Notes: generated by a model not told the origin, from the sequence alone. A DNA stretch of 64,000 nt from Mytilus galloprovincialis (GCF_965363235.1 NC_134847.1:69974935-70038934); one strand, 5' to 3'. Positions 10,501 to 64,000 are shown, counted from the stretch's first letter. Program-made: numbers and translations.

Positions 10501-10520
10501 TGACCTTCCAAAATTTCCAG

Positions 10521-10879
10521 GAAAGGAGAATATTACCAATACTTAGCAGACTATTACCAATTCTTAAATGAAACTGTCACAGGAAATGATAAAAATGAAG
10601 CCACAGAAATTTTTTTAGCTGCATATAACATTGCAAGTGATACAGCATCTGCAGGTCTAGCACCTACTCATCCTGTATGTCTAGATTTAGCACTTAGTTT
10701 GTCTGCATTATATCACGATGTTCTCAACTCCCCAGATAAAGCATGTAGTATAGCAAAATCAGCATTTGATCAGGCAATATCAGAGCTAGATTGTTTAAGT
10801 GAAGAGAGCTATAAAGATTCAGCTGTAAAAATGCAGTTGTTAAGAGATAATTTAACACTGTGGACTGCTGAAGGTGAAG
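10521..10879 (+). CDS. 14-3-3 protein-like exon (C-terminal half, helices 6-9)
   Basis: Acceptor ttccag at 10519-10520. (M)[120 protein letters not shown] aligns along its length with canonical 14-3-3 ([24 protein letters not shown]). Donor G|GTAAGT at 10880. The C-terminal tail exon was not located. Confidence 0.8.
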
Positions 10880-11104
10880 GTAAGTTTAGTGTTTATTTGG
10901 TAAAGCTACCATAATTACTGTCTTGACTGCATCAGAGTTGCAGAAGTGCAAGAAAGTACCAAAATAAAACCTTAGGCATGCTTTGGACATTGATAGCACC
11001 AACAATTGTTTATAGAGTATAAAGGAATCAGATGTGTTATGATTACCAATGAGACATCTAACCATATAAACCAAATGTAAAGATGAAAGCAATCTTTGGC
11101 GATG

Positions 11105-11470
11105 AGTAAAATCTGTTCCATAAAGCAGTCTATCTTGTATCTGGTATCGCTGATGAGTTTATTTACAACCACTGGGTCGATACCACTGCTGGTGGAGTTT
11201 TAATACCCCGAGGGTTTCACAAGCCTGGTAGTCAGTTCTGTGCTGACATGAATTATCATTGATATGGTCATATTTATAAATTAACTGTTCACAAAATAAA
11301 TTTAGAATTTTTGAAATACTAAGGTTTTTTTACTTCAGGAATAGATTATGTTAGCCATATTTGGCACAACTTTTAGTAACTTTGGTCCTCAATGCTCTTC
11401 AACTTCGTACTTTATTTGGCCTTTTTAACTTTTTTTCATATTCATAAATTAAGGAAGCTGGCTAATGTCA
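11105..11470. repeat. Solo, degenerate copy of the 359-bp hammerhead-ribozyme repeat unit (retrozyme-like); ribozyme core not intact
   Basis: Collinear with the 46031-46826 unit (..gctgatgagtttatttacaaccactgggtcgataccactgctggtgg...ccccgagggt...ggaatagattatgttagccatatttggcacaacttttagtaactttggtcctcaatgctcttcaacttcgtactttatttggcc), but it has lost the GAAAC/helix III part. Confidence 0.5.
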
Positions 11471-12060: not shown

Positions 12061-12215
12061 CAATCAATCAATCTTTGAAACTATTAAGTTTATGCAATAC
12101 ATGTTTGCATAAAATACTTTCATCATAATATTCAATTGTTATCACTTTAAGCTTTGGCTAGATATTACAGCATGTGCACTCTTGTTAATATCTGATTTTA
12201 GATCTTGAAACTGAT

Positions 12216-12579
12216 ATGTCACCAGAACAAAAGGGTTATGCCAGGTTTATTGATTCAGACGAAGATGCTAATGAATTATTTAGCTTTAAAATTTCTTCAT
12301 ATGCATCATGTGAGGATTTTGAGGAAGATGAAATTCTTGAAGAAGCTACGAGTATGATTTCTGAAGAAGGCCAATATAAGTCAAGCTCTGATGAAGATGT
12401 GCAGATAATGCCATTAGTATTAGATGCTGGATCACTCATGATGAAGGCAGGATTTGCTGGAGATGATCATCCTAGAGCTAATTTCCCAACAGCTGTAGGT
12501 AGACCTAGACATCAAGGGGTAATGGTTGGAATGGGACAGAAGGATGCATATGTTGGATTTGAAGCCTGTGGAAAACCAG
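12216..12579 (+). CDS. First coding exon: acidic N-terminal extension fused to an actin N-terminal fragment (actin residues about 8-62)
   Basis: Genuine ATG at 12216 with an upstream in-frame stop. ...[54 protein letters not shown] is near-identical to conventional actin ([50 protein letters not shown]). Donor G|GTATAA at 12580, phase 1. Confidence 0.6.
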
Positions 12580-12639
12580 GTATAAAACTTTCTGTTTAAC
12601 CATAACGGTTTGATACTGTGTTGATCATAAGGAAATGGG

Positions 12640-15533: not shown

Positions 15534-17435
15534 CGAATACTTTTAGTTTTCGCACTCTAACTTTAGTAAAAGTGAATGGAAATCTATGAAATTTTAACAC
15601 AAGGTTTATGACCACAAAAGGAAGGTTGGTATTGATTTTGGGAGTTTTGGTCCCAACATTTTAGGAATTAGGGGCCAAAAAGGGCCCAAATAAGCATTTT
15701 CTTGGTTTTCGCACTATAACTTTAGTTTAAGTTAATAGAAATCTATGAAATTTTGACACAAGGTTTATGACCACAAAAGAACGGTTGGGATTGATTTTGG
15801 GAGTTTTGGTCTCAACAGTTTAGGAATTAGGGGCCAAAAAAGGGCCCAAATAAGCATTATTCTTGGTTTTCGCACAATAACTTTAGTTTAAGTAAATAGA
15901 AATCAATGAAATTTAAACACAATGTTAATGACTACAAAAGGAAGGTTGGTATTGATTTTGGGAGTTTAGGTCCCAACAGTTTAGGAATTAGGGGCCAAAA
16001 AGGGACCCAAATAAGCATTTTTCTTGGTTTTCGCACCATAACATTAGTACAAGTAAATAGAAATCTATGAAATTTAAACACAAGGTTTATGACCATAAAA
16101 GGAAGGTTGGTATTGATTTTGGGAGTTTTGGTCCCAACAGAATAAGGGGCCCAAAGGGTCCAAAATTAAACTTTGTTTGATTTCATCAAAATTGAATAAT
16201 TGGGGTTCTTTGATATGCCGAATCTAACTGTCATGACTGTGTATGTAGATTCTTAACTTTTGGTCCCGTTTTCAAATTGGTCTACATTAAGGTCCAAAGG
16301 GTCCAAAATTAAACTTAGTTTGATTTTGACAAAAAATGAATCAGTTAGGTTCTTTGATATGCTGAATCTAAAAAATGTACTTAGATTCTTGATTATTGGC
16401 CCAGTTTTCAAGTTGGTCCAAATCGGGGTCCAAAATTAAACTTTGTTTGATTTCATCAAAAATTGAATAAATGTAGTTCTTTGATATACCAAATCTAACT
16501 GTGTATGTAGATTCTTCATTTTTGGTCCTGTTTTCAAATTGGTCTACACTAAAGTCCAAAGGGTCCAAAATTAAACTTAGTCTGATTTTAACAAAAATTG
16601 AAATCTTGGGGTTCTTTGATATGCTGAATCCAAAAATGTATTTAGATTTTTTATTATGGGCCCAGTTTTCAAGTTGGTCCAAATCAGGATCTAAAATTAT
16701 TATATTAAGTATTGTGCAATAGCAAGTCTTTTCAATTGCACAGTATTGCGCAATGGCAAGAAATATCTAATTGCACAATATTGTGAAATAGCAAATTTTT
16801 TTTTAATTAGAGTTATCTTTCTTTGTCCAGAATAGTAAGCAAGAAATATCTAATTGCAAAATATTGTGCAATAGCAAGATTTTTTTTTAATTGGAGTTAT
16901 CTTTCTTTGTCCAGAATCAACTTAAATCTTTGTTATATACAATATACAATGTATATTCACTTTTTACTACCAACTGATAAATTAAAATAATCTTTACCAT
17001 TCAGTGATAACAAGCAGTTTTTTTACATCTTAATATTTTATGATGTATTTAAATGAGTAGTTATTGTTGCAAACTCCATTAGAAATTTTAATTGAGATTA
17101 GTTTTGGAATAAGGGAAAGGGGGATGTGATTAAAAAAATTGGGTTCAATTTTTCTCATTTGAAATTTCATAAATAAAAAAGAAAATTTCTTCAAACATTT
17201 TTTTGAGAGGATTAATATTCCAACAGCATAGTGAATTGCTCTAAGAGAAAACAAAAATTTTAAGTTCATTAGAACACATTCATTCTGTGTCAGAAACCTA
17301 TGCTGTGTCAACTATTTAATCACAATCCAAATTTAGAGCTGAATCCAGCTTGAATGTTGTGTCCATACTTGCCCCAACCGTTCAGGGTTCAACCTCTGCG
17401 GTCGTATAAAGCTGCGCCCTGCGGAGCATCTGGTT
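15440..17435. mobile_element. About 2-kb composite non-autonomous element, copy A
   Basis: Starts tttttatacgaccgc and ends ...gcggtcgtataaagctgcgccctgcggagcatctggtt. It contains (GTC)12 at 15495-15533, about 4 copies of a roughly 180-bp subrepeat, about 2.5 copies of a roughly 250-bp subrepeat (ggtccaaaattaaact...) and attgcacaatagcaag repeats. It is over 97% identical to 25977-27961. No ORF with any recognisable domain. Confidence 0.7.
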
Positions 17436-25976: not shown

Positions 25977-27961
25977 TTTTATACGACCGCAAATTTTGAA
26001 AAAATTTTCGTCGTATATTGCTATCACGTTGGCGTCGGCGTCGTCGTCGTCATCCGGCGTCCGAATACTTTTAGTTTTCGCACTCTAACTTTAGTAAAAG
26101 TGAATGGAAATCTATGAAATTTTAACACAAGGTTTATGACCACAAAAGGAAGGTTGGTATTGATTTTGGGAGTTTTGGTCCCAACATTTTAGGAATTAGG
26201 GGCCAAAAAGGGCCCAAATAAGCATTTTCTTGGTTTTCGCACTATAACTTTAGTTTAAGTTAATAGAAATCTATGAAATTTTGACACAAGGTTTATGACC
26301 ACAAAAGAACGGTTGGGATTGATTTTGGGAGTTTTGGTCTCAACAGTTTAGGAATTAGGGGCCAAAAAAGGGCCCAAATAAGCATTATTCTTGGTTTTCG
26401 CACAATAACATTAGTTTAAGTAAGTAGAAATCAATGAAATTTAAACACAATGTTAATGACTACAAAAGGAAGGTTGGTATTGATTTTGGGAGTTTAGGTC
26501 CCAACAGTTTAGGAATTAGGGGCCAAAAAGGGACCCAAATAAGCATTTTTCTTGGTTTTCGCACCATAACGTTAGTATAAGTAAATAGAAATCTATGAAA
26601 TTTAAACACAAGGTTTATGACCATAAAAGAAAGGTTGGGTTTGATTTTGGGAGTTTTGGTCCCAACATAATAAGGGGCCCAAAGGGTCCAAAATTAAACT
26701 TTTGTTTGATTTCATCAAAATTGAATAATTGGGGTTCTTTGATATGCTGAATCTAACTGTCATGACTGTGTATGTAGATTCTTAACTTTTGGTCCCGTTT
26801 TCAAATTGGTCTACATTAAGGTCCAAAGGGTCCAAAATTAAACTTAGTTTGATTTTGACAAAAAATGAATCAGTTAGGTTCTTTGATATGCTGAATCTAA
26901 AAATGTACTTAGATTCTTGATTATTGGCCCAGTTTTCAAGTTGGTCCAAATCGGGGTCCAAAATTAAACTTTGTTTGATTTCATCAAAAATTGAATAAAT
27001 GGGGTTCTTTGATATACCAAATCTAACTGTGTATGTAGATTCTTCATTTTTGGTCCTGTTTTCAAATTGGTCTACACTAAAGTCTAAAGGGTCCAAAATT
27101 AAACTTAGTCTGATTTTAACAAAAATTGAAATCTTGAAGTTCTTTGATATGCTGAATCCAAAAATGTACTTAGATTTTTTATTATGGGCCCAGTTTTCAA
27201 GTTGGTCCAAATCAGGATCTAAAATTATTATATTAAGTATTGTGCAATAGCAAGTCTTTTCAATTGCACAGTATTGCGCAATGGCAAGAAATATCTAATT
27301 GCACAATATTGTGAAATATCAAATTTTTTTTTAATTAGAGTTATCTTTCTTTGTCCAGAATAGTAAGCAAGAAATATCTAATTGCAAAATATTGTGCAAT
27401 AGCAAGATTTTTTTTTAATTGGAGTTATCTTTCTTTGTCCAGAATCAACTTAAATCTTTGTTATATACAATATACAATGTATATTCACTTTTTACTACCA
27501 ACTGATAAATTAAAATAATCTTTACCATTCAGTGATAACAAGCAGTTTTTTTACATCTTAATATTTTATGATGTATTTAAATGAGTAGTTATTGTTGCAA
27601 ACTCCATTAGAAATTTTAATTGAGATTAGTTTTGGAATAAGGGAAAGGGGGATGTGATTAAAAAAATTGGGTTCAATTTTTCTCATTTGAAATTTCATAA
27701 ATAAAAAAGAAAATTTCTTCAAACATTTTTTTGAGAGGATTAATATTCAACAGCATAGTGAATTGCTCTAAGAGAAACAAAAATTTTAAGTTCATTAGAA
27801 CACATTCATTCTGTGTCAGAAACCTATGCTGTGTCAACTATTTATTCACAATCCAAATTTAGAGCTGAATCCAGCTTGAATGTTGTGTCCATACTTGCCC
27901 TAACCGTTCAGGGTTCAACCTCTGCGGTCGTATAAAGCTACGCCCTGCGGAGCATCTGGTT
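25977..27961. mobile_element. About 2-kb composite non-autonomous element, copy B
   Basis: Collinear with 15440-17435 over its whole length, including the GTC microsatellite (shorter here) and all subrepeats. Flanked on both sides by copies of a roughly 130-bp local repeat (tctcttactttagtttgcctcaaccaaatgttatgaaac) at about 25830 and 27975, also at 24255 and 28195. Confidence 0.7.
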
Positions 27962-37439: not shown

Positions 37440-37700
37440 TGATAACCAAACTAGCATTTTATTTTCAACGCCCCTGAGTTGTTTCTACTGGTATAAAATG
37501 TCATCTTTTGTCTTGTCTATCCTCTGTCATTGTTAACAATGTTTTCTCAATGCTCTTCAACTTTGTACTTTATTTGGCCTTTTTAACTTTTTTGGATTCG
37601 AGCATCACTGATGAGTCTTTTGTAGACGAAACGCGCGTCTGGCGTATATACTAAATTCAGTCCTGGTATCTATGATGAGTTTATTCATTTCACTTTCACA
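37440..37700 (+). repeat. Solo partial copy of the hammerhead-ribozyme (retrozyme-like) repeat unit with an intact-looking ribozyme
   Basis: ..ctcaatgctcttcaactttgtactttatttggcctttttaac..gagcatcaCTGATGAGtcttttgtagaCGAAACgcgcgtctggcgta: core motifs and both closed helices present. Confidence 0.6.
37598..37647 (+). ncRNA. Type-I hammerhead ribozyme motif (solo)
   Basis: CUGAUGA; helix II GUC/GAC with loop UUUUGUA; GAAAC; helix III ACGC/GCGU with loop GCGUCUG; GUA cleavage triplet. Confidence 0.55.
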
Positions 37701-42332: not shown

Positions 42333-44319
42333 ATATTTAAGTGGTCACATTTTGGACATCTTCAGAACTTCATTTGTCTTTATACAGATTGTCAATTGTA
42401 TTATGTATTATATTGTTTAACATTTTTGTTCATAAAACACAAATTACTGCTGCTAGATAGTACAAAAATATTCACTTTTAACTATGTTTTGATTGCTTAA
42501 CTGTGATTTATATATAATTGTTATGTTTTAATTTATCTAAATTGGTTTTGGTATTGAACCTATTATAACCATGTATCTATTATTAACTGATGGTAATGAT
42601 GCAATTATATTAAATTTTTGTTAATCAGTTTCAGTTACAAAATGCCCCTACTATCATGGATCTCTGTTTAATCTAATCTAAAGTCACTTGAAACAAACAG
42701 TTTCACCTGATACATAAAGATTTCACTACCAAATAGGTATTTGAAGGGCTAAAGATGATATTAAATTCACTTAATATCATGTTTTATAGTCATATTTTTA
42801 GCAGTAAGTTTATTAAGTTTTTTTCCTGTGATGAAAATGTTTTTGTTATATCTATTTTTAGCATTTAACAAATTGCTTTATACTTTGTGATAGAAAAAAA
42901 GGTTTTGGTTTTGTGATAATGATTTGTATTATGGTTTAATATATTTAATAAAAAAAAGGATAGGATTAAATTTGTTATTCTAATTCTGCCACTAAATGGA
43001 AAATGAAAATAACATTTTTATAAATTTGTACATGTATAAAGCACATGGTCAGATTTCATGAATAGTTTTAGTTGTAGTTTTTATCATCAAGTAAATAAAT
43101 GTGTTTAATGAAAGTTTAGTCAAAAGAAAATGCAGAAACACTATAAAAGTGGGGCGGATTCAGAATAAACTGAAAACATCATGGCTAAGAACGAAAAAGA
43201 CAAACAGACAAATAATAGTACATGCCATAATATAGGAAACTTAAGGCTTAGCAACAAGAACCCCATCAAAAACTAGGGATTATCTTAGGTGCTCCAAAAT
43301 GATAAGTAGATACTGCTCCACATAACTGTCAACTAACTTGTGATGGCATCCGTAAAATTTACGAAGGAATGCTTTTAACTTTACCATTTGAAACTCTTTG
43401 TTTTAAAAAATCTTCCTTATGAACAGCAACCCTCTACGAAAGAAATCATGGTAGGAAATACAAGCACGAGCATAGATCGTATCAATTGGGAGGCATATAC
43501 TCTGTATGCAGGCGCTGCTGGAATGTTGCTACATAGAAATGGAAAGTTTACAATTGGGAAGCTGAAATAATCTCTATTGTCGAAAAGTTTTGTTTCTGTC
43601 AATTTCTAGATGTAAGTTGAGAACTGAGGCAGACTTAGCTGTATCCGTTATCTCTAGCTCGACAGGATAGATGCATTTAACATAGTTATCAAATTTGACA
43701 CAATTTCCCACTAAACGCTTAACTGCTGGCTGAGAAGGATGTGAAATGTCAAATTTAAAGAAACTATTTGCATATCTGTCAACTTCTCAAAAAATCAAAG
43801 GGGAGATTGTTCCCTCAACAGGACCTAATGCATCTCTTATATATGACATAAGCAATTATTAACAGAATCATATCTAGCATACTTTGGTTTTGAAAAATTG
43901 TATTTGTGCTATAATTTCATTGAATCTTCTTTAATTGGCTGTTTTGATATATTATCAGTTTCAATGATGAGTTCACTTGAAATTACAGAGTTCTGTATCA
44001 TCGACTAATGTAGAAATAATGAAATCTTGAAGAGACTAACACAGGAATAGTTTATTTTGTTCTATTTGACTTTAAAACAAGATTTTATTATAAACTAAGC
44101 AATGAGGGAACAATAATCCGCTGAACACATTTGGAAATTAAAGTTTTGATGGTAGTCAAAATATTATTCTTTACAAACAAGTTTATTGTGATTCATCTAA
44201 AAAAATCACGAATTTCCTTATAATTGCATAACAAATATTTTATCAACAAAATTTTATTTTGAATGGCAAAATGTAAATATTTGTAGAAGTTACAAATTAA
44301 ATTGAATTTTAGTTAGTTG

Positions 44320-44480
44320 CATTTGCACAACTTTTTGGGAATTTTGTGTTCTCAATACTCTTCAGTTTTGTACTTGTTTCGATCTAAAACTGCATGTATT
44401 TTGATCTGAGTGTCACTGATGAGTCTTATGTAGAAGAAACGCGCGTCTGACATATTAAATTATAATCCTGGTACCTTCGA
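44320..44480 (+). repeat. Fragment of the retrozyme-like unit with a mutated hammerhead (helix II G:A mismatch, helix III disrupted)
   Basis: gtgtcaCTGATGAGtcttatgtagaaGAAACgcgcgtctgacat. Confidence 0.5.
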
Positions 44481-45229
44481 TAACTATTCACAGAAGCAAT
44501 ATCTAAGGAAATCTGTGAGTAAAATTTTAGACCATGACCAGCATAAAATTTAAATCATAATGATCAGATCAAAATTTCCATTTACTTGGATTCAATGAAC
44601 AATTAATCTAAATGACAATCAGCCTCATGTAGCACACATACCCCATTAAAATGAGCATGGATAGAATTTAAGCTATTGTTGATTTATTTTCTTCTGATTG
44701 TACCAATTGTCGTGGATTGGAGAGAATCATATTCTCGTGGATGTTTGATCTTGCAGATTTGACAAAGTCTACATACAAATGTGGAAAAGTTCTAATCCGC
44801 TGAACATTTTGATATGTTGTTTCACCTTTACACATGAAATGACCCCAGCAAATGATATCCTAAGAATGTTTTAGAATTTACAACATTTAACTGAAATACT
44901 GTAAAAAAAAACCACTTCAGTTTGGGTAAACATGTAGTTATGTGGATAATTGTGACCTCAACAGATTGATCTCTGCCCGTTTAATGTTCAGTGGCAATTG
45001 TTTCATGCATATTAAGGTTGATGTAAATATTTGGTACATTGGCCAAATGTAGGATTTGCCTGTACATGCTGTAAGGAGATGTAGAATGTCAGCTCTCGAA
45101 AACCACAGATGAAAACTTTCAAAATGAAGCTCTTAACAAAATATGCAGATGGTAGGAACAATGTCACTGACCTATTTAATCAAATTAAGCTACCAACAAA
45201 AGCCAGATTCAAGCACATTTTCTGTTGAA

Positions 45230-45320
45230 AGTTCACTGATGAGTCTTTTGTAGACGAGACGAGCGTCTGGTGTAAATATAACATTTCAATCCTGGTATCT
45301 ATGATGAGTTTATTCATAGC
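45230..45320 (+). repeat. Degenerate fragment of the retrozyme-like unit (GAAAC mutated to GAGAC)
   Basis: ttcaCTGATGAGtcttttgtagacgagacgagcgtctggtgta. Confidence 0.45.
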
Positions 45321-46384
45321 TAAAATTAAAAAAACAAGATTAAGCTGGATACATTAGATGACATTATAATAGTGTGTTGTATTATAGTTTAGCTACCTTG
45401 GTTGAGTTGACTATGGAATAATATATAAAATTCCTAGATGCAACCAGAAAAAAAATAATGAATTAGCGAATCTGAAAATTTACATTACTTTAATGCTATA
45501 GTTTTTGATGGTGATGTATCGTTTAAAACAGTTAAAGTATGACTTTAAGAAGAAGCGTGCATTTGAAAAGGAAAACACACCTAGTGGGCAACGCTTTCCA
45601 CGTTTTATACACTCAACACCCGACTAAAAGTCTCAAGGAATTCAAAGATGAGAAGATACATGGTTAATTCTACGAACCCGAAATTCAGAAGACAGCCTAA
45701 GACGTGAACTGCATTTAAAAGATCTAGCGAAAGCTATACAGGAACATAGTCTGTATATTGGCATATAATATGTTTTTCCCTTTTACACCGACCCACGGAA
45801 TCCGCGATCGCCTATGTAAATTCCATCCCGAAGTATCAGCTAGGAATTCTACACCAAATGAAGTTTATACCCTCAGTATATTTTTTTGGATCAAACAATC
45901 AGACTACAGTTAAAACAACTCATCAAGCTGATTTGTCTTAACCGTTCGATAAGACTACTAGTATGAAGGTTACTTAGACGTTGAACAGCAATCCATCATT
46001 AGATCATGCTTTGTCTGAATTGATAAACGGTTATATGAGTCTTATGTAGACGAAACGCGCGTCTGGCGTACTAAATTAAAATCCTGGTACCTTTGATAAC
46101 TATTTACACCACTGGGTCGATGCCACTGCTGGTGGACGTTTCGTCCCCGAGGGTATCACCAGCCCAGTTGTCAACACTTAGGTGAAGAAATGAATATCAA
46201 TAATGTGGTCATTTATTTTTATAAATTTCCTGTTTACAAAACTTTGAATTTTTCGAAAAACTAAAGATTTTCCTATCCCAGGCAAAGATTACCTTAGCCG
46301 TATTTGGCACAACTTTTTGGAATTTTGGATCCTCAATGCTCTTCAACTTTGTACTTGTTTGGCCTTATAAATTCTTTGATATGA

Positions 46385-46430
46385 GCGTCACTGATGAGTC
46401 TTATGTAGACGAAACGCGCGTCTGGCGTAC
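46385..46430 (+). ncRNA. Type-I hammerhead ribozyme (complete core), unit 2 of the array
   Basis: CUGAUGA at 46391-46397; helix II GUC-UUAUGUA-GAC; GAAAC at 46411-46415; helix III ACGC-GCGUCUG-GCGU; cleavage after GUA at about 46429. Confidence 0.65.
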
Positions 46431-46743
46431 TAAATTAAAATCCTGGTACCTTTGATAACTATTTACACCACTGGGTCGATGCCACTGCTGGTGGACGTTT
46501 CGTCCCCGAGGGTATCACCAGCCCAGTAGTCAACACTTAGGTGTTGAAATGAATATCAATAATGTGGTCATTTATTTTTATAAATTTCCAGTTTACAAAA
46601 CTTTGAATTTTTCGAAAAACTAAGGATTTTCTTATCCCAGGCATAGATTACCTTAGCCGTATTTGGCACAAATTTTTGGAATTTTGGATCCTCAATGCTC
46701 TTCAACTTTGTACTTGTTTGGCTTTACAAATACTTTAATATGA

Positions 46744-46790
46744 GCGTCACTGATGAGTCTTATGTAGACGAAACGCGCGTCTGGCGTACT
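46744..46790 (+). ncRNA. Type-I hammerhead ribozyme (complete core), unit 3 of the array
   Basis: Identical motif; CUGAUGA at 46750-46756 and GAAAC at 46770-46774. Confidence 0.65.
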
Positions 46791-46935
46791 AAATTAAAAT
46801 CCTGGTACCTTTGATAACTATATACGTCTTGATCTCGCAGCAGTATGTCTCTATTCAAGACAAAATATTGTCCAGGTTTTTATGCTGTTCTTTCAATTTC
46901 TTATTCGCTTGTCTCTTCAGATTTTTCTTGCATGT

Positions 46936-47247
46936 TTACATCAGCTCTTGCCAATTCTTTGGAAACTAGCCTTTCGTCACCAGCTAATCAGCTACTTTCC
47001 TTCGGAAAGTTTACGAATATAATGGTTGTACACATTTCGTTTCATCATCCACACTGGCCCTGTGAGCTGTCAAATTGATGAAGCAAGTGATTACATCAGC
47101 TCTTGCCAATTCTTTGGAAACTAGCCTTTCGTCACCAGCTAATCAGCTACTTTCCTTCGGAAAGTTTACGAATATAATGGTTGTACACATTTCGTTTCAT
47201 CATCCACACTGGCCCTGTGAGCTGTCAAATTGATGAAGCAAGTGATT
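46936..47247. repeat. 157-bp tandem duplication (x2)
   Basis: acatcagctcttgccaattctttggaaactagcctttcgtcaccagctaatcagctactttccttcggaaagtttacgaatataatggttgtacacatttcgtttcatcatccacactggccctgtgagctgtcaaattgatgaagcaagtgatt is repeated exactly. Confidence 0.85.
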
Positions 47248-49611: not shown

Positions 49612-50689
49612 ATAAATACTATTTAAATATACTTGAAATGTTTGAAAATTGGTTTCATTTAACTTTAGGTATATTTTCTCAGGAACTCTTACCTCGCGTT
49701 TATTACAAGGCCGGTCTCCATACCAACTTATGTTCACGGCGAGTGCCTTGCAAGAAGCAAGCTCTGTTCTCCCTCAGACGTAGCCCCTGATTTTTCGGGA
49801 TCAATGTTTCTTATTTATTTGTCATTTGTTCATTTACCCTTCTGTATTCTGTTTGTGTTGCATTCATTTTGTAATTGAGCAATTTTGTTATTAACCTGAT
49901 CATTAGGTCTTTTGATGTTGTCCCTAGAAACTTAAGTCTTACACTGAATCTATACATTTTGCTGTGAGACCAAGAAAGGGTCTGGGGAACACCCAGATAG
50001 CATGATTTTGCATCATTTGTTCTACATCTTCTGTGCCTTCAGTGGCTCCAAAATCCTTTAAAAAAATGTTTGCCTCGCTCCGCTTGGCTTGTGGAAACAT
50101 GTTTTCCAAGACTAGTTACAACCAAACTTTGATACTGTGTATTTATGCAATACGTACATGTATATGCAGTTGGGAATATAGAAGATTCATTTCTGCAGAG
50201 GATGATGATTAATTCTGATTAAATGGTACATAACGTCTTGACTATACATGTATAATTTTATAATAAACAAATACTTTTAAAATTGTATATTTTTGAATAT
50301 CAAAGCTATAGTTGTGAAAATAAATAATCAGTCCCTTGCTTTAATGAAAATAAAAAATCTTGCTTCAATACTGCAGAAAATAGATTACCTGTCCGCTTAG
50401 TTTACAAAAATAAATAACCGATCAAAAACAAATCCTATTGTCCCCCCACCCCACCCCGAATATTTTAAAATGGTCGTCCACTTAGTAGTTTAGAATTTCT
50501 TCAATATCCGCAGGTTCCGTCTGCTCAAAATATCCTGTAGGTAGGGGTTGTGTCATAATCCATCTCTACAGGTAGGTTTGATAATTGTTCGGTTGTGTTT
50601 TGTCGTAGTCGGTTATGTACGGTCTGTTATCCTTGTTCTGTCGATAAAATACTATGGCCACGACTTATCTGGTGGCTTGTTTACCTCAG

Positions 50690-50890
50690 GAATAGATTAC
50701 CTTAGATGTATTTGGCAAAACTTTTAGGAATTTTTGGTCCTCAATGCTCTTCAACTTCGTACTTTATTTGGCCTTTTATAACATTTTTGATTTGAGCGTC
50801 CCTGATGAGTATTTTGTAGACGAAACGCGCGCCTGGCGTAAATATTAAATTTTATTCCTGGTATCTATGATGAGTTTATTTCCAAACATC
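50690..50890 (+). repeat. Solo copy of the retrozyme-like unit with a near-intact hammerhead (50793-50841)
   Basis: ..ctcaatgctcttcaacttcgtactttatttggcc..gagcgtccCTGATGAGtattttgtagaCGAAACgcgcgcctggcgtaa; helix II has one A:G mismatch. Confidence 0.55.
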
Positions 50891-51321: not shown

Positions 51322-51461
51322 GTTATCTTGGTGTAATCAGGGGTGTACAGAATTTTACACCGTTGTTGAAAATTCATACACCCTGAGGCGCAGCCGAATG
51401 GGTGTATGAATTTTCAACAACGGTGTAAAATTCCGTACACCCCTGATTACACCAAGATAAC
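51322..51461. repeat. 140-nt near-perfect hairpin (62-bp stem with 1 mismatch, about 17-nt loop)
   Basis: gttatcttggtgtaatcaggggtgtacagaattttacaccgttgttgaaaattcatacaccc-tgaggcgcagccgaatg-gggtgtatgaattttcaacaacggtgtaaaattccgtacacccctgattacaccaagataac. Confidence 0.85.
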
Positions 51462-51639: not shown

Positions 51640-51694
51640 TAAAAATATTTTTTTTATTTTTTTTTTTTTTGACTGATTTTATTATTTTTATTTG

Positions 51695-51747
<53 letters not shown>

Positions 51748-57057: not shown

Positions 57058-57757
57058 AGTGAGGAACAACCGGACGTGGAGGAAGGTGGACGTGTTTTCT
57101 GAGCTGACCTATTCTGTCGCCTACACTTACCCGCACCCACTTAGTAGTTGATTGTGTCATTACTCAAACACTAGTGCAAGTATTTGACAATTTATTGTCA
57201 TTTAATAGCGGTTTTAGCAGAAAATTCATTGCGAGTGAAGGACAGGTAACATAGCGTCACCCAGCGCCATCTTGAAAAAATTTCAAAACTTTCAAAGCAA
57301 AGGTGTTAAGTCTATACTTCACCTGAAATTAGTCTCTCCTTTCCCGGGAAACACAAGAACAATGTGTTGCTGATGTTTACTGAATTTTTAATTAACTTTT
57401 AACGAACTTTTAGTGTCCATTATTTTATCCAAATCGAGTAGTTTGAAAATGATCAGTATTCTTGTGTAGTTTCACAGTCTGTGTACTCGTTCTCATTCTT
57501 CATTTTACCTTTTATCGCTTGATAAATTTTTTAGATTTTATTGTATGTAGTAAGGTTTTTCATTTTACCTTTTAAAACACTTGAATTAAATTTTAAGCCA
57601 GTACTTTTAAGTTTGTGTTACTATAAAGTGTTTTATAATCAGTTTTTAATTTTTAAACTGTCCTTGATGTAGCACATGTTAGCAGATAAGTTATTTTTGC
57701 TCAAAATATTTTTGTGTAAATCTATTACCACACTCATTAAATTCTTTGTTTGGTAAA

Positions 57758-59770
57758 ATGGAAATTGCCAGAAGAAGAAGTGACCGAGTTAAAGGCAAGA
57801 AAGTAATGTTTACTCCCTGTAAAACTGTATCTAATACTGCAACAAAAAACAAGAAGTCTAATAGTAATAGTAGTATTAATGAAAAAACTGTTGATTATGA
57901 ATTAAATAAAAGAAAGGCTGTTAGCAAGAAGCTTGATGCTGCCGAACGGTTGTATACAGTAAAAACTGAAATAAGTCCAGGTAATCTGGTCCTTATCTTC
58001 TCTGCTGCTGCTTATGAAGAATTCAAAGTTATAACACAGTCAGTTGTAAACAACACTGGTCTGCAGATAAATAAGACTGAGACTAAGGATAAATTAGGTG
58101 CCATTGTATCTGAATCACTGGCGATCCATAATGGAAGCACAAAATTATTTGTTTTGAACTTTTTTAATACCACAACAAAAGTCCTTTTGAATGGCAACCA
58201 ATCATATATAAAGGAATTTATAACCACTGCTCTCGGGGACATATTGTGTATTCTTGACCGTAACTCCAAATTTAGTCTTATAAACAATCAAATCAGAGAA
58301 TATTGTAAAATGTTTTTAGATAACACGCAACAAAGTAATCTGGACACAGCAAGTAAAGATGAGCAAGGGGTACAAATTTTAAGTAAGAAGTCAATGGTTA
58401 GTTCTAAACAACAGACAGTGGGGACCTGTTCTAATATTAAGTCAAAAACTATTCAAAGTGACATCTTATGTCCAACATGTAAGAAAGTCTGTGGAAATGA
58501 CTCAAAGGCAGTAGAGTGTGACATATGTAATGTATGGGTCCATTATAGCTGTGAAAAACTTGGTCTAAGTGACATTCATGTAATTGAAAATGACTTAACA
58601 GCAGAGTATATCTGTATAAGCTGCAAACAGTTGAGAGCCTTGCAGGCTGATTGTGTAGCAGGAGGGTCTATCTCTGATAATAGTAATGACTCAAATAAGG
58701 GGGAAGAAATGCCAAGATCGTCCCTCTCAAGTGCTGATATTAACCCCATGGCTCGGGGGTCGGTTGTTTCTGGTGTTACTATAATACATAAAGACAATAG
58801 ACTGTTTTCTAATAATAATTCCACAAATGATGAGGATATAAATAAGGACAATTCAAGAAGTGATAGCTCCTATAGTTCCGTACAAATGGGTTCAAACATT
58901 TTAAAAGAAGAAATAATCTCTCTAAAATTAGAAATTACTCATAAAGATAAAGGAATCAAGCAAAAGGACAGTCAAATTTATAAGTTACAAACAGAAGTGT
59001 CCACTCAGAAAAAAGAGCTTGCAGCAAGTAGAGCGTATGCTATAAAACTGGAAAATGACATTAGGGATTTAGAACACTCTTTGTTAATTCAAAAACAAAA
59101 ACAAAGTTCAAGCGTGAATGCGGACTTTAACAGGCAAAGTCCTTTTAGTGATAATAGTAATAAATCCGAATCAGAAAACTTAAAAAGTTGGTTTTTTGAA
59201 CAGAGGATGAGGCAAATGGAATTGGAAATTTGTAAACAAGATAATAAAATAAGTAATCTAAGTGATAAACTGTTGGACTTGAGATTTGACAACAATAATC
59301 AATCAACACGGTCTCGACAAAGGCAAAATAGAGGGAGGCAAAATAATGCTAATAAGTACAGTAGAAACGAAAGGTCTCAATTTGATAGACATAGTGAAAA
59401 CAAGCACTGTAAATTTCAGAATGATTTTGCAGATTTTAGTGGGGGTATGTCATTTCGGCACGATGAATCCCAACCCAATAGTCTTCACATTGATAATAGT
59501 GGTAGTGAAAATGAGACCAATTCTGTGGTTAATGGTCAAACAAACAATAGTGATAATTTTTTAGGGAATATTCATTCCAGGGGGAAATCAAAATGTCAAA
59601 CACAAGCAAGGAAAAGATTTCACGAGAAATCGGAGCAAATATATATACCCCCAAGAAAGCAAATGAAACAAGTACCGCCGAGGTTCCAACGTCTTCAACA
59701 GGAAAAGTTGGGTTGCACACAGAGAGACAATTTAATGATGCCCACATTGGGTCAATCCACAAAAATGTAG
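57758..59770 (+). CDS. LINE ORF1: PHD-type zinc finger (CPTCKKVCGNDSKAVECDICNVWVHYSCEKL...CISC) plus coiled-coil protein
   Basis: First ATG at 57758 (the ORF-track start at 57746 is TTG). Cys/His spacing typical of a PHD finger. Heptad-rich LKLEITHKDKGIKQKDSQIYKLQTEVSTQKKELAASRAYAIKLENDIRDLEH. Confidence 0.7.
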   Translation: MEIARRRSDRVKGKKVMFTPCKTVSNTATKNKKSNSNSSINEKTVDYELNKRKAVSKKLDAAERLYTVKTEISPGNLVLIFSAAAYEEFKVITQSVVNNTGLQINKTETKDKLGAIVSESLAIHNGSTKLFVLNFFNTTTKVLLNGNQSYIKEFITTALGDILCILDRNSKFSLINNQIREYCKMFLDNTQQSNLDTASKDEQGVQILSKKSMVSSKQQTVGTCSNIKSKTIQSDILCPTCKKVCGNDSKAVECDICNVWVHYSCEKLGLSDIHVIENDLTAEYICISCKQLRALQADCVAGGSISDNSNDSNKGEEMPRSSLSSADINPMARGSVVSGVTIIHKDNRLFSNNNSTNDEDINKDNSRSDSSYSSVQMGSNILKEEIISLKLEITHKDKGIKQKDSQIYKLQTEVSTQKKELAASRAYAIKLENDIRDLEHSLLIQKQKQSSSVNADFNRQSPFSDNSNKSESENLKSWFFEQRMRQMELEICKQDNKISNLSDKLLDLRFDNNNQSTRSRQRQNRGRQNNANKYSRNERSQFDRHSENKHCKFQNDFADFSGGMSFRHDESQPNSLHIDNSGSENETNSVVNGQTNNSDNFLGNIHSRGKSKCQTQARKRFHEKSEQIYIPPRKQMKQVPPRFQRLQQEKLGCTQRDNLMMPTLGQSTKM

Positions 59771-62700
59771 GAAAGGATATACATGTACAAGAGCCTCATG
59801 ATAATGAAATAAGTATAGATAGCGTGCTGAACATTTTATCTTTTAACATTGAAGGTTTTTTATCTAATAATATGTATCTATCTATGCTAGAGAAAAGAGC
59901 TGATATAATTATGTTACAGGAACATTGGTTACATAATAGGGAAAAACAAGTTTTAGAGGAATTTTTAACTGACTTTTTATGTCTTGTAAAATGCTTTGAT
60001 GATGATAAGACAAATGACCCAACTGAAAGGAGGAGGGGGCATGCTGGGGTTGCAATTTGTGTTAACAAAAAATTACAAAATCTTGTTGAACTTTTACCGG
60101 ATGGATGTAATAGAGTAATAGCTATACGTCTCAACGTAAAACAGCCACTTGTGCTAATATGTGTCTATATGCCAACTAGAGGTGGAAATATCACTATTGA
60201 AGATTTTAAAACTGTACTAGATGAGCTAAGTGAAATGATAGAAAAATATCTGCCTACTTCTGACATAATTATAGGAGGTGACATGAATGCCTCACTGCAT
60301 AGAAATGAGCGTAAAATACCTCGTGACATTGTCTTTGATGAATTCTTAAAATCTAATGGTCTGTCAATACCTTCCACTTGCAAAACGCAGAGTACGTTTT
60401 TTCACTTCAATAACAGAGATGAATCTCAAATTGACTATTTTGTAGAAACTAGTGCAATGGTCAAGAAATATTTGTCATTTAATCGTGAATTTCAAAATCT
60501 ATCCATTCATGATCCAATTATGATTTCAATTAACTGTTGTATTGAAAGGATGGATATTAGCACTAGCGATCCTAGACCTTTACGTATAAAATGGGATAAA
60601 ATTGATAAACAAAAATATGAAAATTTACTTCAAGAGAGATTAACTGAATTTAGTGATGTGGCTGTGGTTGAAACTGCTGAAAATATAGAGAACATTTTAA
60701 CAAAATTTTCTGACATTATTGTGACTACTGCTGAAAGTCTATGCCCAAAAAGGAAAAAGAAATTTAAGAGGAAAAGGGACTGGACCCCAGAAATGACTGA
60801 AATTGTTAAGGAGGGTAAATTTTACTATTGGAAATGGAAAAATGAAGGTAATAAAGATAATAAATCTAGCATTAACTATATTCGAATGAAAGTGCAAAAG
60901 AAAAAACTTCGTTCTGCCCAAAGACGATTGGCTGCTGAGAAAAGAGAAAATACGTATACCAAAATTATGGAATTAAATGAGAATAATGATAAACAATTTT
61001 TCGCATTAGTAAATAAGCAGAGAAATGCAAGGTCATCCACAACTTCAATTTTGAAGGTTAACAATAGACTGTATAATAATTCAGCCTCTATTCTGGGAGC
61101 TTGGGCTGAATACTTTGAAGATTTGGCCTCGCCATCTGTGCAAGATAGATTCGATAGTAAATTTTTCAATTTGGTTAATAATGACATTGAAATATTAACT
61201 GATATTTTCTTAAGTACAAGAGAACCGATTCAGGAAGTGACTGAGTACGAATTGAATAAATGTATTTTATCTTTTAAAAATGGAAAAGCTCCAGATGTTG
61301 ATAAATTCACCATAGAACACTTGAAATATGGAGGACAGACAGTTGTAAATATACTAACTAAATTGATAAACTTGATTTTTAAAACTGTTGCTGTCCCAAA
61401 TAATTTAAAAATAGGGATAGGATGCCCTCTGTTTAAAAATGGAGGAAAACCAAAAGAAGATCCAAATTCATATAGACGTATAACTATAACTAGTGCTATT
61501 GGAAAAACTATAGAAAAGCTACATTTATCCCGTAACAAAAGCTCTATTAAAAATCAGCAAAGTAGATTACAAAAAGGGTTCACTGAAGGGGAATCCCCTA
61601 CTGTAGCGGGGCTGGTTGTAACTGAACTAAGAATAGAAGCTAAAGAAAAACGTTTACCCATATATATTGGATTAACTGATGCTAAAAAAGCGTTTGATAT
61701 AGTATGGCATGCTGGCCTATTTAGAGAAATGCATAAAATGAACATATCTGGAGATAATTGGTTATTATTTAGGGCATGGTATGAAGACTTAACTACAAAA
61801 GTAAAATGGGAAGGAAATTATTCACGTGGGTTTAAAGAAAAACAAGGCGTCCGTCAAGGAGGTGTTTGGTCTCCAACTGCGTATAAAGTTTTTATTAACT
61901 CTTTACTGAAAATTTATGAGGAAAACAAAATTGGGTCGTACATAGGTTCAATATACTGTGGTGCTCCAACTGTAGCAGACGATGTTACATTGATAGCTAA
62001 TGATCCATATGAACTACAAACTATGATTAATATTCAAATGGACCATGCAAATAAATTTAGATATTCGATTAGTGAACAGAAATCCTGTGTATTGAAAATA
62101 GGAGACAAGTCAGAACATTCCTGGTATATGAACGACCAAAAGTTAAATACACCAATTAATGCTACCCACTTAGGAATAAAAAGGGACATAAATTCTAAAT
62201 TTGGAGTTAAAGAAGTTGTACCAGATAGAATACAAACTGCTCGTAAAACAGTATATGCATTGATGGGCGCTGGTCTCTATGGCCTGAATGGGATAAATCC
62301 GAAGGTCTCAGTTCACATGATAAAGTGCTTTGTCATTCCGAGGCTACTGTATGGCCTGGATATTATTCGATTAACAAAAACTGATATAGCAAAACTATCT
62401 GTTTATTATATACAATTGTTGAAACAAATCCAGCATCTGCCGTCACGCACTGCGAATTCTGCTGTTTTAGTCCTGACTGGTCAGCTTCCTATAGAATCTG
62501 AAATCCACAAAAAAATGCTTTCCCTATTTCGTAACATTGCAGATAATCACGGGTCAGTTGAACGCAGTATCGCTCAAAGACAGCTTGCTTTGAAAACAAG
62601 AGACTCTGAAAGCTGGTTTATTCAAATTATAAAATTAACAGAAATGTATGAATTGCCATCTCCTATAGAGGTACTGGATCTAGTCCCAGAAAAGCATATT

Positions 62701-63243
62701 TGGAAAAAATTGGTTTATAACGCAGTGAATGACTATTGGAAAAACATTTTAATTCTTGAAGCTAGGACAAAAGTATCTATGAAAATGTTAAATGTTGATA
62801 ACTTTAAAGTTGGTGTAGTTCATAATATCTGGGAGAGTAGTGGTTCAGAACTTTTATCCGTTAAAAGAGCATGTGTCAAAGCCAAAATATTAAGTGGGAC
62901 TTACACTCTTCAAGCTGATCGAGCAAAATTTAATGGAAATAGAACAAGTTCTTTATGCCCTCTGTGTTTTAAACAATCTGAAGACTTAATGCACTTTCTT
63001 ATAAAATGTAACTCTTTGGAAGGAGTGAGAAGGAAATTCATTATGCTACTAAGAAATCTACTAAATGATAAGATAAATGCTCTTCTTGTGGATGATTTAT
63101 TTAACTTTGAAGATAATCTATTACAATTAATAGTGGACTGTACAAAATTCCAGTTTTTAAAACAATTATGGACAACTATTGAGCGCCTGTCAAGCAGCTT
63201 ATGTTTTGGTCTACATCAGAAGAGAACTAGCTTGTTACTATAA
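59593..63243 (+). CDS. LINE ORF2: AP-endonuclease (EEP) domain, reverse transcriptase, C-terminal Cys-rich motif
   Basis: N-terminal LSFNIEGF..IIMLQEHW..GGDMNA. RT motifs FKNGGKPKEDPNSYRRITITSAIGK, LTDAKKAFD, GVRQGGVWSPTAYKVFIN, APTVADDVTLIA. C-terminal CPLCFKQSEDLMHFLIKC. Overlaps ORF1 by 178 nt in another frame. Confidence 0.8.
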   Translation: MSNTSKEKISREIGANIYTPKKANETSTAEVPTSSTGKVGLHTERQFNDAHIGSIHKNVGKDIHVQEPHDNEISIDSVLNILSFNIEGFLSNNMYLSMLEKRADIIMLQEHWLHNREKQVLEEFLTDFLCLVKCFDDDKTNDPTERRRGHAGVAICVNKKLQNLVELLPDGCNRVIAIRLNVKQPLVLICVYMPTRGGNITIEDFKTVLDELSEMIEKYLPTSDIIIGGDMNASLHRNERKIPRDIVFDEFLKSNGLSIPSTCKTQSTFFHFNNRDESQIDYFVETSAMVKKYLSFNREFQNLSIHDPIMISINCCIERMDISTSDPRPLRIKWDKIDKQKYENLLQERLTEFSDVAVVETAENIENILTKFSDIIVTTAESLCPKRKKKFKRKRDWTPEMTEIVKEGKFYYWKWKNEGNKDNKSSINYIRMKVQKKKLRSAQRRLAAEKRENTYTKIMELNENNDKQFFALVNKQRNARSSTTSILKVNNRLYNNSASILGAWAEYFEDLASPSVQDRFDSKFFNLVNNDIEILTDIFLSTREPIQEVTEYELNKCILSFKNGKAPDVDKFTIEHLKYGGQTVVNILTKLINLIFKTVAVPNNLKIGIGCPLFKNGGKPKEDPNSYRRITITSAIGKTIEKLHLSRNKSSIKNQQSRLQKGFTEGESPTVAGLVVTELRIEAKEKRLPIYIGLTDAKKAFDIVWHAGLFREMHKMNISGDNWLLFRAWYEDLTTKVKWEGNYSRGFKEKQGVRQGGVWSPTAYKVFINSLLKIYEENKIGSYIGSIYCGAPTVADDVTLIANDPYELQTMINIQMDHANKFRYSISEQKSCVLKIGDKSEHSWYMNDQKLNTPINATHLGIKRDINSKFGVKEVVPDRIQTARKTVYALMGAGLYGLNGINPKVSVHMIKCFVIPRLLYGLDIIRLTKTDIAKLSVYYIQLLKQIQHLPSRTANSAVLVLTGQLPIESEIHKKMLSLFRNIADNHGSVERSIAQRQLALKTRDSESWFIQIIKLTEMYELPSPIEVLDLVPEKHIWKKLVYNAVNDYWKNILILEARTKVSMKMLNVDNFKVGVVHNIWESSGSELLSVKRACVKAKILSGTYTLQADRAKFNGNRTSSLCPLCFKQSEDLMHFLIKCNSLEGVRRKFIMLLRNLLNDKINALLVDDLFNFEDNLLQLIVDCTKFQFLKQLWTTIERLSSSLCFGLHQKRTSLLL

Positions 63244-64000
63244 AGACTGTTCATATAGTTTTCCAAGTTAAAGAGACATATATAGTGAAATTTATTTTTT
63301 GAGTGTGGTATAGATGATAATGATAAGCAAAGATTTAAACTGATTGTTAAAGTTAGGTGGTCTTTTTAACGCTTATATGATAGGTGATAACTTTACATAT
63401 TATTTTTAGATTTTAAATGTTTATTTGTCGCTAAGTTTTAAGTACAAATAACAATGTAATGGTTCATTACCTTAAGTTTAAGAATAAACTACTCTGTAAT
63501 GAGGCTCTTTGGTTAGGGGTATATACTAGGTATAAGTGTAAGGGTTAGGACTTACAGTTTGCATTTGATGAGTATGTTTAAGTATAAGGAATGTGAATTA
63601 GACATTTGCTGAGCTGAGCAAGTTTCACAGTCTATGTGCTTGGTGGATAGATGTGATGTATATATATTCTTCCGATGAGGAGAGAGACTCAAGTGAGATA
63701 AAGGACAAAATAACAATGGATGAATCTATCAAGTTTTAGATTTTAAAATATGACTGTATATACAGTTTGAATACTTTTAAATAAGTGTGGTGGCGGTGTA
63801 TATAAGTGTATAAAGAAGATGTTTTTAATCCAATAGTGAATATAAGGGATTCTACACTTCAAGAGGATATTCCAACTGAAGTGGTTCATCTGATAAAGGT
63901 GGAAAGTACAGAATAGGTAACAGGTAACAGGTAACCCTGTAAATAAACAAACCCGACGATACTTATTATATTATAGAAGAATACAAAAATTACAAGGTGA

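Follow-up and report, generated by a model that had tools for sequence, protein, structure and literature searches.

A tandem repeat in mussel DNA as a probable 2.2-unit insertion of the Mytilus hammerhead retrozyme

A 359-bp sequence that carries hammerhead ribozyme motifs is repeated head to tail within a 64,000-nucleotide stretch of DNA (the window, by which we mean the whole stretch analysed). The locus raises the question of what kind of element this repeat represents, whether its ribozymes should be active and how it came to be inserted where it is. We believe that the first part of this question can be answered with a probability of roughly 90%: the array is a 2.2-unit insertion of the Mytilus non-LTR retrozyme, a non-coding and non-autonomous element that bears one type-I hammerhead in each unit of ~350-390 bp. 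Mytilus retrozymes, along with their ribozyme, self-cleavage and circRNAs, were described in a 2020 publication, and the array is one of thousands of copies. The array comprises the following features.

46035-46063, plus strand: 5'-truncated hammerhead at the array start, beginning at A6 of CUGAUGA; partial match to RF00163 (model positions 10-39, 17.6 bits)
46064-46422, plus strand: unit 1 in the cleavage-site register, with an intact ribozyme at its 3' end only
46385-46428, plus strand: complete type-I hammerhead 1; RF00163 model positions 1-45, 33.0 bits, E 3.9e-6; C17 is 46422 and the cut falls between 46422 and 46423
46423-46781, plus strand: unit 2, the sole 359-nt monomer between two complete ribozymes
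46465-46534, plus strand: conserved GC-rich hairpin of unit 2 (46106-46175 in unit 1), CACUGGGUCGAUGCC...GGGUAUCACCAGCCCAGU; 24 predicted pairs
46744-46787, plus strand: complete type-I hammerhead 2; RF00163 model positions 1-45, 33.0 bits; the cut falls between 46781 and 46782
46782-46825, plus strand: 3' tail of the array, 40-44 nt past the cleavage site, ending ...GATAACTAT(ATAC)

The 359-bp tandem repeat noted in the initial annotation is borne out by TRF, which places one array at 46035-46825 (period 359, 2.2 copies, 96% matches, 0 indels, score 1491). Alignment of the array pieces resolves two full units plus a partial third of ~80 nt, arranged plainly head to tail, with no long repeats flanking them and no LTR. 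The unit has a GC content of 38%. No ORF of at least 120 aa lies within the array, and its stop-to-stop fragments of at least 75 aa matched no Pfam domain. Between units 1 and 2, 12 of 359 positions (3.3%) are different, and all 12 are confined to unit positions 106-315 (unit 1, 46169-46378; unit 2, 46528-46737). The 149 nt that make up the ribozyme, the tail and the hairpin show 0 differences between the units (P ~0.002, for a region delimited post hoc, after the data had been seen).

At its upstream end, the array meets the flanking DNA inside the catalytic core (…ggttat/ATGAGTC…, with the slash at the junction), and position 46035 is the 5' truncation point of the insertion. A complete ribozyme had been proposed for every unit, which is not the case for the first copy: it starts inside the core, and having neither the 5' strand of helix I nor C3-G5, it should be incapable of cis cleavage. 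At the downstream end, the tail matches the full units exactly up to 46821 and continues to 46825 with one mismatch.

The identity of the repeat is established most directly by comparison with Mg353, a genomic retrozyme cloned from Mytilus galloprovincialis (Cervera & de la Peña 2020, NAR 48:5054, PMC7229834). From cut to cut, unit 46423-46781 is ~85-86% identical to this clone over 341 aligned columns. Within the ribozyme, 43 of 44 bases are identical and the sole difference lies in loop 2, and primers 110R and 109R/109D, published for this family, find their sites in the window with 1-2 mismatches. The M. galloprovincialis genome contains ~5000 type-I hammerheads within 350-390-bp repeats, and metazoan non-LTR retrozymes as a group are described as non-coding tandem repeats of 150-450 bp with low GC and one type-I hammerhead per unit (PMC7229834). 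The array has each of the corresponding properties, with a 359-bp unit in 2.2 copies, 38% GC, no LTR and homology to Mg353. Judged by this homology, the array is a genomic copy of the already described Mytilus retrozyme family, and the element itself was already known. The first reading of the locus as a retrozyme-like repeat with one type-I hammerhead per unit, and as such a potential source of small circular RNA, is thus upheld by the ~85% identity to Mg353 and by the matching primers, and the conserved GC-rich segment singled out in that reading is identical in Mg353.

Array and clone further share the cleavage site GCGCGUC/UGGCG (the slash here and below marking the cut), the same GC-rich hairpin, a low GC content and a tandem arrangement, and the 359-bp unit lies within the published range of 350-390 bp. 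They differ in loop 2, which is UUAUGU in the array and UUUUGU in the clone, and in the tail, which reads ...CCUUUGAUAACUAU in the array and ...CUAUGAUGAGUUUAUU in the clone; the array is a different subfamily variant. Both of the published ribozyme and tail variants occur in the window.

The two complete ribozymes are spaced 359 bp apart. Several elements of the initial description of these ribozymes agree with our analysis. It quoted the string gagcgtcaCTGATGAGtcttatgtagaCGAAACgcgcgtctggcgtac, which we find at 46383-46430 and again at 46742-46789; the boxes CUGAUGA and GAAA occur as described in both complete copies, and helix II is formed as described (GUCU/AGAC). The type-I topology is likewise confirmed by the full-length RF00163 alignment (model positions 1-45), in which helix I is open and helices II and III are closed. 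In this covariance-model alignment, helix I is GCGUCA/UGGCGU (6 bp), and the core CUGAUGA is followed in both complete copies by helix II (GUCU-UAUGU-AGAC, 4 bp) and then by GAAA. The short palindrome ACGCGCGU makes up helix III and, when folded alone, forms 2 bp and a GCGC loop. Cleavage is located at GUC/U, after 46422 and 46781, with C17 preceding the cut.

Helix III had originally been drawn as ACGC and GCGU enclosing a GCGUCUG loop, together with a GUA cleavage triplet, and both assignments need to be corrected. The 3' GCGU is the 3' strand of helix I, and pairing ACGC with it leaves helix I unpartnered and moves the cut, as GUA/C, 7 nt too far downstream. The real cut at GUC/U is placed 7 nt upstream both by the RF00163 alignment and by the Mg353 clone, for which the supplement of PMC7229834 marks cleavage at …GCGCGTC/TGGCG…. 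We also counted pairs across 11 aligned copies, of which the window supplied five and metagenome contigs four, the others being the published clone and the second array copy. In the model and published register, 91.7% of cells pair (87.9% in helix I), versus 62.2% (31.8% in helix I) in the register drawn originally. Because the copies are nearly identical, these pair counts alone are not decisive for the helix register, and it is the published clone that decides. On the strength of the helix I pairing and the published cleavage site, the earlier helix III and GUA register was rejected. One compensatory pair is present in helix I (columns 10-51; C-G becomes U-A in the 44410 copy), although covariation support is statistically weak, the copies being nearly identical.

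A whole-window Rfam scan at gathering thresholds yielded 0 matches, with the complete ribozymes scoring 33.0 bits against the 34-bit gathering score of RF00163, and a permissive scan of the region was needed to recover the Hammerhead_1 matches. Such a match had been named in the initial annotation as a check on its claim, and its absence at the gathering threshold would formally count against a hammerhead; this result is outweighed by homology to a ribozyme that cleaves experimentally. With an E-value of 3.9e-6 when 1 kb was searched and of 5.3e-5 for 14.5 kb, the hammerhead motif is well beyond chance although it scores 1 bit below the curated cut-off. The 1-bit shortfall reflects where that cut-off was set, and no feature of the ribozyme is missing. 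Single-sequence MFE folding of the ribozyme did not recover the hammerhead (z ~0), and MFE folding commonly misses hammerhead motifs. The more general point is that the Rfam gathering threshold misses a validated ribozyme family by 1 bit, and standard annotation consequently leaves such loci blank.

Given that 43 of 44 positions are shared with the Mg353 ribozyme, the ribozymes of the array are predicted to self-cleave. Mg353 self-cleaves in vitro with a kobs of ~0.1 per min, a construct with a single Mg353 ribozyme cleaves, and RtcB ligase circularises ~30% of the Mg353 monomer in vitro (PMC7229834). Moreover, circRNA of the Mytilus repeat accumulates and is abundant in gonad, mantle and other tissues (PMC7229834). 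The truncated start of the array limits what it could produce. Unit 1 would not be releasable as a monomer because only its 3' end carries an intact ribozyme, and at most one 359-nt monomer should be releasable from the array because only unit 2 is flanked by two intact ribozymes. If the array yields linear or circular RNA, unit 2 is the sole candidate for its precursor. For the retrozyme family, the predicted circRNA junction joins ...GCGCGUC to UGGCGUAC..., and the predicted back-splice junction, written as DNA, joins ...GAAACGCGCGUC to UGGCGUACUAAAUU.

The two ribozymes of one transcript could also cooperate as a double hammerhead. Cofolding of two 48-nt ribozyme segments gives a structure with two helices I, two helices II and an 8-bp intermolecular helix III, at -31.5 kcal/mol versus -10.0 for each single copy. 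Double-hammerhead action has been proposed for newt hammerheads and for those of Penelope-like elements (PLEs; PMC7229834).

To understand how the array might have been inserted, it is useful to consider its relatives. A BLAST search of the window with the unit and Mg353 uncovered five further pieces of the family, all on the plus strand.

11141-11435, plus strand: internal family piece without a ribozyme (Mg353 positions 24-306)
37540-37685, plus strand: solo 5'-truncated insertion of the Mg353-like subfamily (Mg353 positions 254-353 and then 1-46; RF00163 28.5 bits)
~44303-44492, plus strand: solo 5'-truncated insertion of the array's subfamily (RF00163 28.5 bits)
45233-45314, plus strand: short solo fragment that starts just before CUGAUGA and ends at the common 3' terminus
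50674-50888, plus strand: solo 5'-truncated and decayed insertion, with U16.1 changed to C and helices I and II broken

The copies in the window fall into two tail and loop-2 variants, and most are decayed. The copy at 37540-37685 has an intact hammerhead core and one A-C mismatch in helix I. In the copy at 44303-44492, helix I is compensatory (GUGUCA/UGACAU), and the copy is probably inactive because the closing pair of helix II is broken (G..A). The fragment at 45233-45314 would be dead because the GAAA of its core has become GAGA. Beyond the window, a pattern scan of metagenome contigs found four insertions on three contigs, and no further retrozyme copies were detected in bacterial and archaeal genomes or viral contigs.

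When the nine ribozyme-bearing insertions from the window and the metagenome contigs are lined up on the cleavage site, eight of them, from two subfamilies, lose homology 40-47 nt past the cut, directly after …GAGTTTATT or …GATAACTAT(T). The ninth (50674-50888) reaches +54/55, and unrelated flanks lie beyond the 3' end in all nine. Their 5' starts are scattered, at 194, ~212, 222, 254, ~310, 319 and 325 + two units in Mg353 coordinates; these are seven distinct starts, and two more are cut off by contig ends. Target-primed reverse transcription characteristically leaves a fixed 3' end together with variable 5' truncation. This combination would place the start of cDNA synthesis at a defined internal site and not at the end made by the ribozyme. 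We tentatively suggest, at somewhat less than even odds, that the shared 3' end 40-47 nt past the cut marks a specific start of reverse transcription on circular or multimeric RNA. Such an internal start site fits the published model, in which the template is circular or multimeric (legend to Figure S9), and also fits the position of hammerheads near the 3' ends of PLEs. If true, the RNA end made by the ribozyme would not be the priming end, and the 3'-terminal motif ...UCCUGGUAYCU...UAUU would serve as a handle for the partner RT. According to a 2020 review, no such conserved motif was known for metazoan retrozymes (PMC7761336).

We therefore envisage a route of four steps. Transcription of the plus strand, whether by read-through or from a promoter, would produce an RNA in which the hammerheads at 46385-46428 and 46744-46787 fold either singly or, by way of the palindromic helix III, as a double hammerhead. 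Cleavage at this second step would be expected from the near-identity to the self-cleaving Mg353 ribozyme. A host tRNA ligase of the RtcB type might then circularise the RNA, for which Mg353 in vitro and the circRNAs of the family in mussel tissues are precedents. Finally, an RT supplied in trans, for which the candidate in the literature is a Penelope-like element, would copy the circle or multimer more than once around, starting at a defined point 40-47 nt past the cut, and the cDNA would be inserted with variable 5' truncation. We infer this starting point because the nine insertions share their 3' end and have different 5' ends.

The only autonomous element in the window is an apparently intact APE-type LINE (57069-63932) that lies 10 kb from the array on the same strand. 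Its ORF2 (59593-63243, 1216 aa) carries Exo_endo_phos and RVT_1 domains and is 98% identical to a protein of M. trossulus and 94% identical to one of M. edulis, while a 6.9-kb paralogous copy of the LINE on an M. trossulus chromosome aligns with 96% identity. An exact-protein look-up of ORF2 returned no record. By these ORF2 matches, the window can be assigned to Mytilus. Outside the LINE, a Pfam scan of the window's stop-to-stop fragments of at least 75 aa, a cut-off that short or heavily decayed RT remnants could escape, found no remnant of a Penelope-type RT or of GIY-YIG and its sole matches were fragments of 14-3-3 and actin. Five insertions were inspected for target-site duplications, with no signal beyond chance, and ARAGORN found no tRNA-like head in the retrozyme. 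A B-box-like motif with one mismatch was spotted by eye.

Given these data, it seems appropriate to question whether the copies need belong to a separate non-autonomous element at all. They might instead be the 3' ends (pseudo-LTRs) of 5'-truncated PLEs, which bear hammerheads close to the 3' end, have mostly lost part of their 5' side and occur as partial tandems. The fixed 3' end and variable 5' truncation observed here are in keeping with this idea, and a 2026 preprint finds Xenopus retrozymes to be homologous to PLE pLTRs. However, there is no RT or GIY-YIG remnant upstream of the copies or elsewhere in the window outside the LINE, the points of 5' truncation fall inside the retrozyme unit itself, and the repeated sequence of the array is a whole, non-coding 359-bp unit whose end joins its start, as in the cloned circRNA consensus. 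We consider this explanation improbable. It is very improbable, in our view, that the retrozyme is a SINE-like passenger mobilised by the RT of the LINE at 57069-63932. The 3' region of this LINE shows no similarity to the retrozyme tail and ends in GGTAACA repeats, and the retrozyme insertions have neither a tRNA-like head nor a poly(A) or simple-repeat tail after them. These differences stand against the proximity and shared strand of an apparently intact LINE, against the fact that LINE and SINE insertions, too, typically combine a fixed 3' end with a truncated 5' end, and against the argument that metazoan retrozymes could count as a kind of SINE (PMC7761336).

Two other proposals concern the history of the array and not its partner. 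One inserted unit might have been multiplied in place, through tandem duplication or unequal crossing-over, as opposed to rolling-circle reverse transcription. Satellite-type expansion has been proposed for retrozyme arrays (2026 preprint), and the 3.3% difference between the units is compatible with it. Even so, the 3' terminus of the array is the same as in insertions shorter than one unit, and its arbitrary 5' truncation inside the core is what would be expected of a single insertion longer than one unit. Although we find local duplication unlikely, the two models are not mutually exclusive. The second proposal is that the array and the solo fragments are an inert fossil of the retrozyme family that is never transcribed and gives rise to no circRNA. 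Retrozymes seem to lack a promoter (PMC7761336), the array is short, its units are 3.3% apart, and a disrupted core or helix is seen in four of the window's five other copies; the divergence of the units suggests an old insertion, and the array copy may be silent. Against this, read-through transcription would suffice for expression, both complete ribozymes are intact and each is one loop base away from the active Mg353 ribozyme, and ribozyme, tail and hairpin are all spared by the differences between units. A fossil is therefore a possibility that we take seriously, but one to which we would give rather less than an even chance.

If the array is accepted as an insertion of the Mytilus non-LTR retrozyme, it can be compared with other hammerhead systems. 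An invertebrate counterpart is Sm-alpha of Schistosoma, a SINE-like, short, dispersed or tandem non-coding repeat with a type-I hammerhead; to our knowledge, its sequence is unrelated to the mussel repeat, and the two are likened by description. The retrozymes of newt (satellite 2) and axolotl (HHR_Amex1/2) similarly place a type-I hammerhead in tandem repeats of ~330-350 bp, with a weak helix III whose palindromic tetraloop permits a double hammerhead (PMC7229834). [quoted passage not shown] In contrast, there is no sequence similarity beyond the catalytic core, helix III of the mussel ribozyme has 2 bp, and a mussel construct with a single ribozyme cleaves (PMC7229834).

The hammerheads of PLE pseudo-LTRs are also of type I, are found near the 3' end of the insertion and occur in partial tandems with frequent 5' truncation, and PLEs have been proposed as both source and mobiliser of animal retrozymes (2026 preprint). 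Unlike the array, PLEs code for an RT, either alone or together with a GIY-YIG endonuclease, of which no remnant was found in the window outside the LINE, and their hammerheads are described as minimal variants (PMC7229834). Plant LTR retrozymes resemble the mussel element as non-autonomous retroelements that form circRNA through hammerhead self-cleavage, but they have type-III hammerheads, LTRs, a PBS and a PPT, 4-bp TSDs, a GC content above 55% and units of ~700 nt (PMC7229834). The mussel array is of type I with no LTRs and no detected TSDs, has a GC content of 38% and is built from 359-bp units.

The array and its relatives are also clustered, with six insertions in one orientation in the 64-kb window versus 0 in 166 kb of other Mytilus loci. 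The latter figure derives from seven further loci that were fetched by means of the LINE proteins and contained no retrozyme copy; an Rfam scan of six of these loci (139 kb) gave no match. The common 3' terminus, the variable 5' truncation and the one-orientation clustering all bear on how animal retrozymes are reverse transcribed and mobilised. If the 3' terminus and the clustering prove to be as we describe them, they would provide a concrete model of how retrozymes are copied and where they land.

Beyond the ribozyme, the repeat shows modest signs of structure. Folded as a circular monomer, unit 2 is modestly better than its shuffles (z -2.3), as are unit 1 (-0.8) and Mg353 (-1.0), and linear folds of the whole unit are likewise weakly better than shuffles. 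Among the array unit, Mg353 and the copy at 11141, the GC-rich hairpin is the best-conserved part outside the ribozyme, and its apical stem contains compensating changes (n = 3 distinct sequences).

Six separate retrozyme-derived insertions, that is, copies or pieces of the non-coding Mytilus element that carries one type-I hammerhead ribozyme per unit, are found within the 64 kb of the window:

11141-11435, + strand, retrozyme insertion
37540-37685, + strand, retrozyme insertion
44303-44492, + strand, retrozyme insertion
45233-45314, + strand, retrozyme insertion
46035-46825, + strand, retrozyme insertion (the tandem array)
50674-50888, + strand, retrozyme insertion

All six lie on the + strand, their 5' truncation points vary, and both of the subfamilies that differ in tail and loop 2 are represented among them. 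No retrozyme copies were recovered from 166 kb of Mytilus sequence searched at seven other loci. The insertions in the window are a local cluster with a single orientation.

Two further insertions, both 5'-truncated and one from each subfamily, are carried by a metagenome contig (L001; ERZ887849 NODE-20863), where they are convergent and separated by approximately 740 bp:

L001 1653-1858, + strand, 5'-truncated retrozyme insertion
L001 2596-2691, - strand, 5'-truncated retrozyme insertion

The window also holds an APE-type LINE that appears to be intact and that ends at its 3' terminus in GGTAACA repeats:

57069-63932, + strand, APE-type LINE
57746-59770, LINE ORF1, with a PHD finger
59593-63243, LINE ORF2 (1216 aa), with Exo_endo_phos and RVT_1 domains

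The closest match to its ORF2 is a Mytilus trossulus protein (98% identical), and a copy of the element on M. trossulus chromosome CM071714.1 shares 96% DNA identity with it.

Two open fragments with Pfam matches occupy 10504-10911 (+) and 12189-12596 (+); in one, the encoded sequence is a 14-3-3 protein's C-terminal half (E 1.4e-33), and in the other it is an N-terminal segment of actin (E ~1e-10). They may be exons or pieces of processed pseudogenes. The retrozyme piece at 11141-11435 sits between them.

A near-perfect hairpin at 51335-51448, whose stem spans about 50 bp, folds at -85.8 kcal/mol (z -17.6 relative to shuffled sequences), and several miRNA-precursor models match it below threshold on both strands. 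This structure is probably an inverted repeat of the foldback or MITE-like kind.

At 46936-47247, TRF reports a 155-bp unit duplicated in tandem with 100% identity; this repeat begins 110 bp beyond the 3' end of the retrozyme array and has no similarity to the retrozyme. TRF also reports a composite block of 161-bp and ~262-bp tandem repeats that is present twice (15546-16801 and 26074-27445, ~10.5 kb apart) and may be a bivalve satellite, a MITE-like element or a segmental duplication, as well as a T-rich run of 94 nt (78% T) at 51648-51741.

A tRNA search with ARAGORN found none. Within the conserved GC-rich hairpin of the retrozyme, GGGTCGATGCC at 46473-46483 (and again at 46114-46124) resembles by eye the Pol III B box GGTTCGANNCC, from which it differs at a single position, a T that is normally invariant. 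Judged in the same way, UGGCGUA at the ribozyme cleavage site is similar to the first half of an A box.
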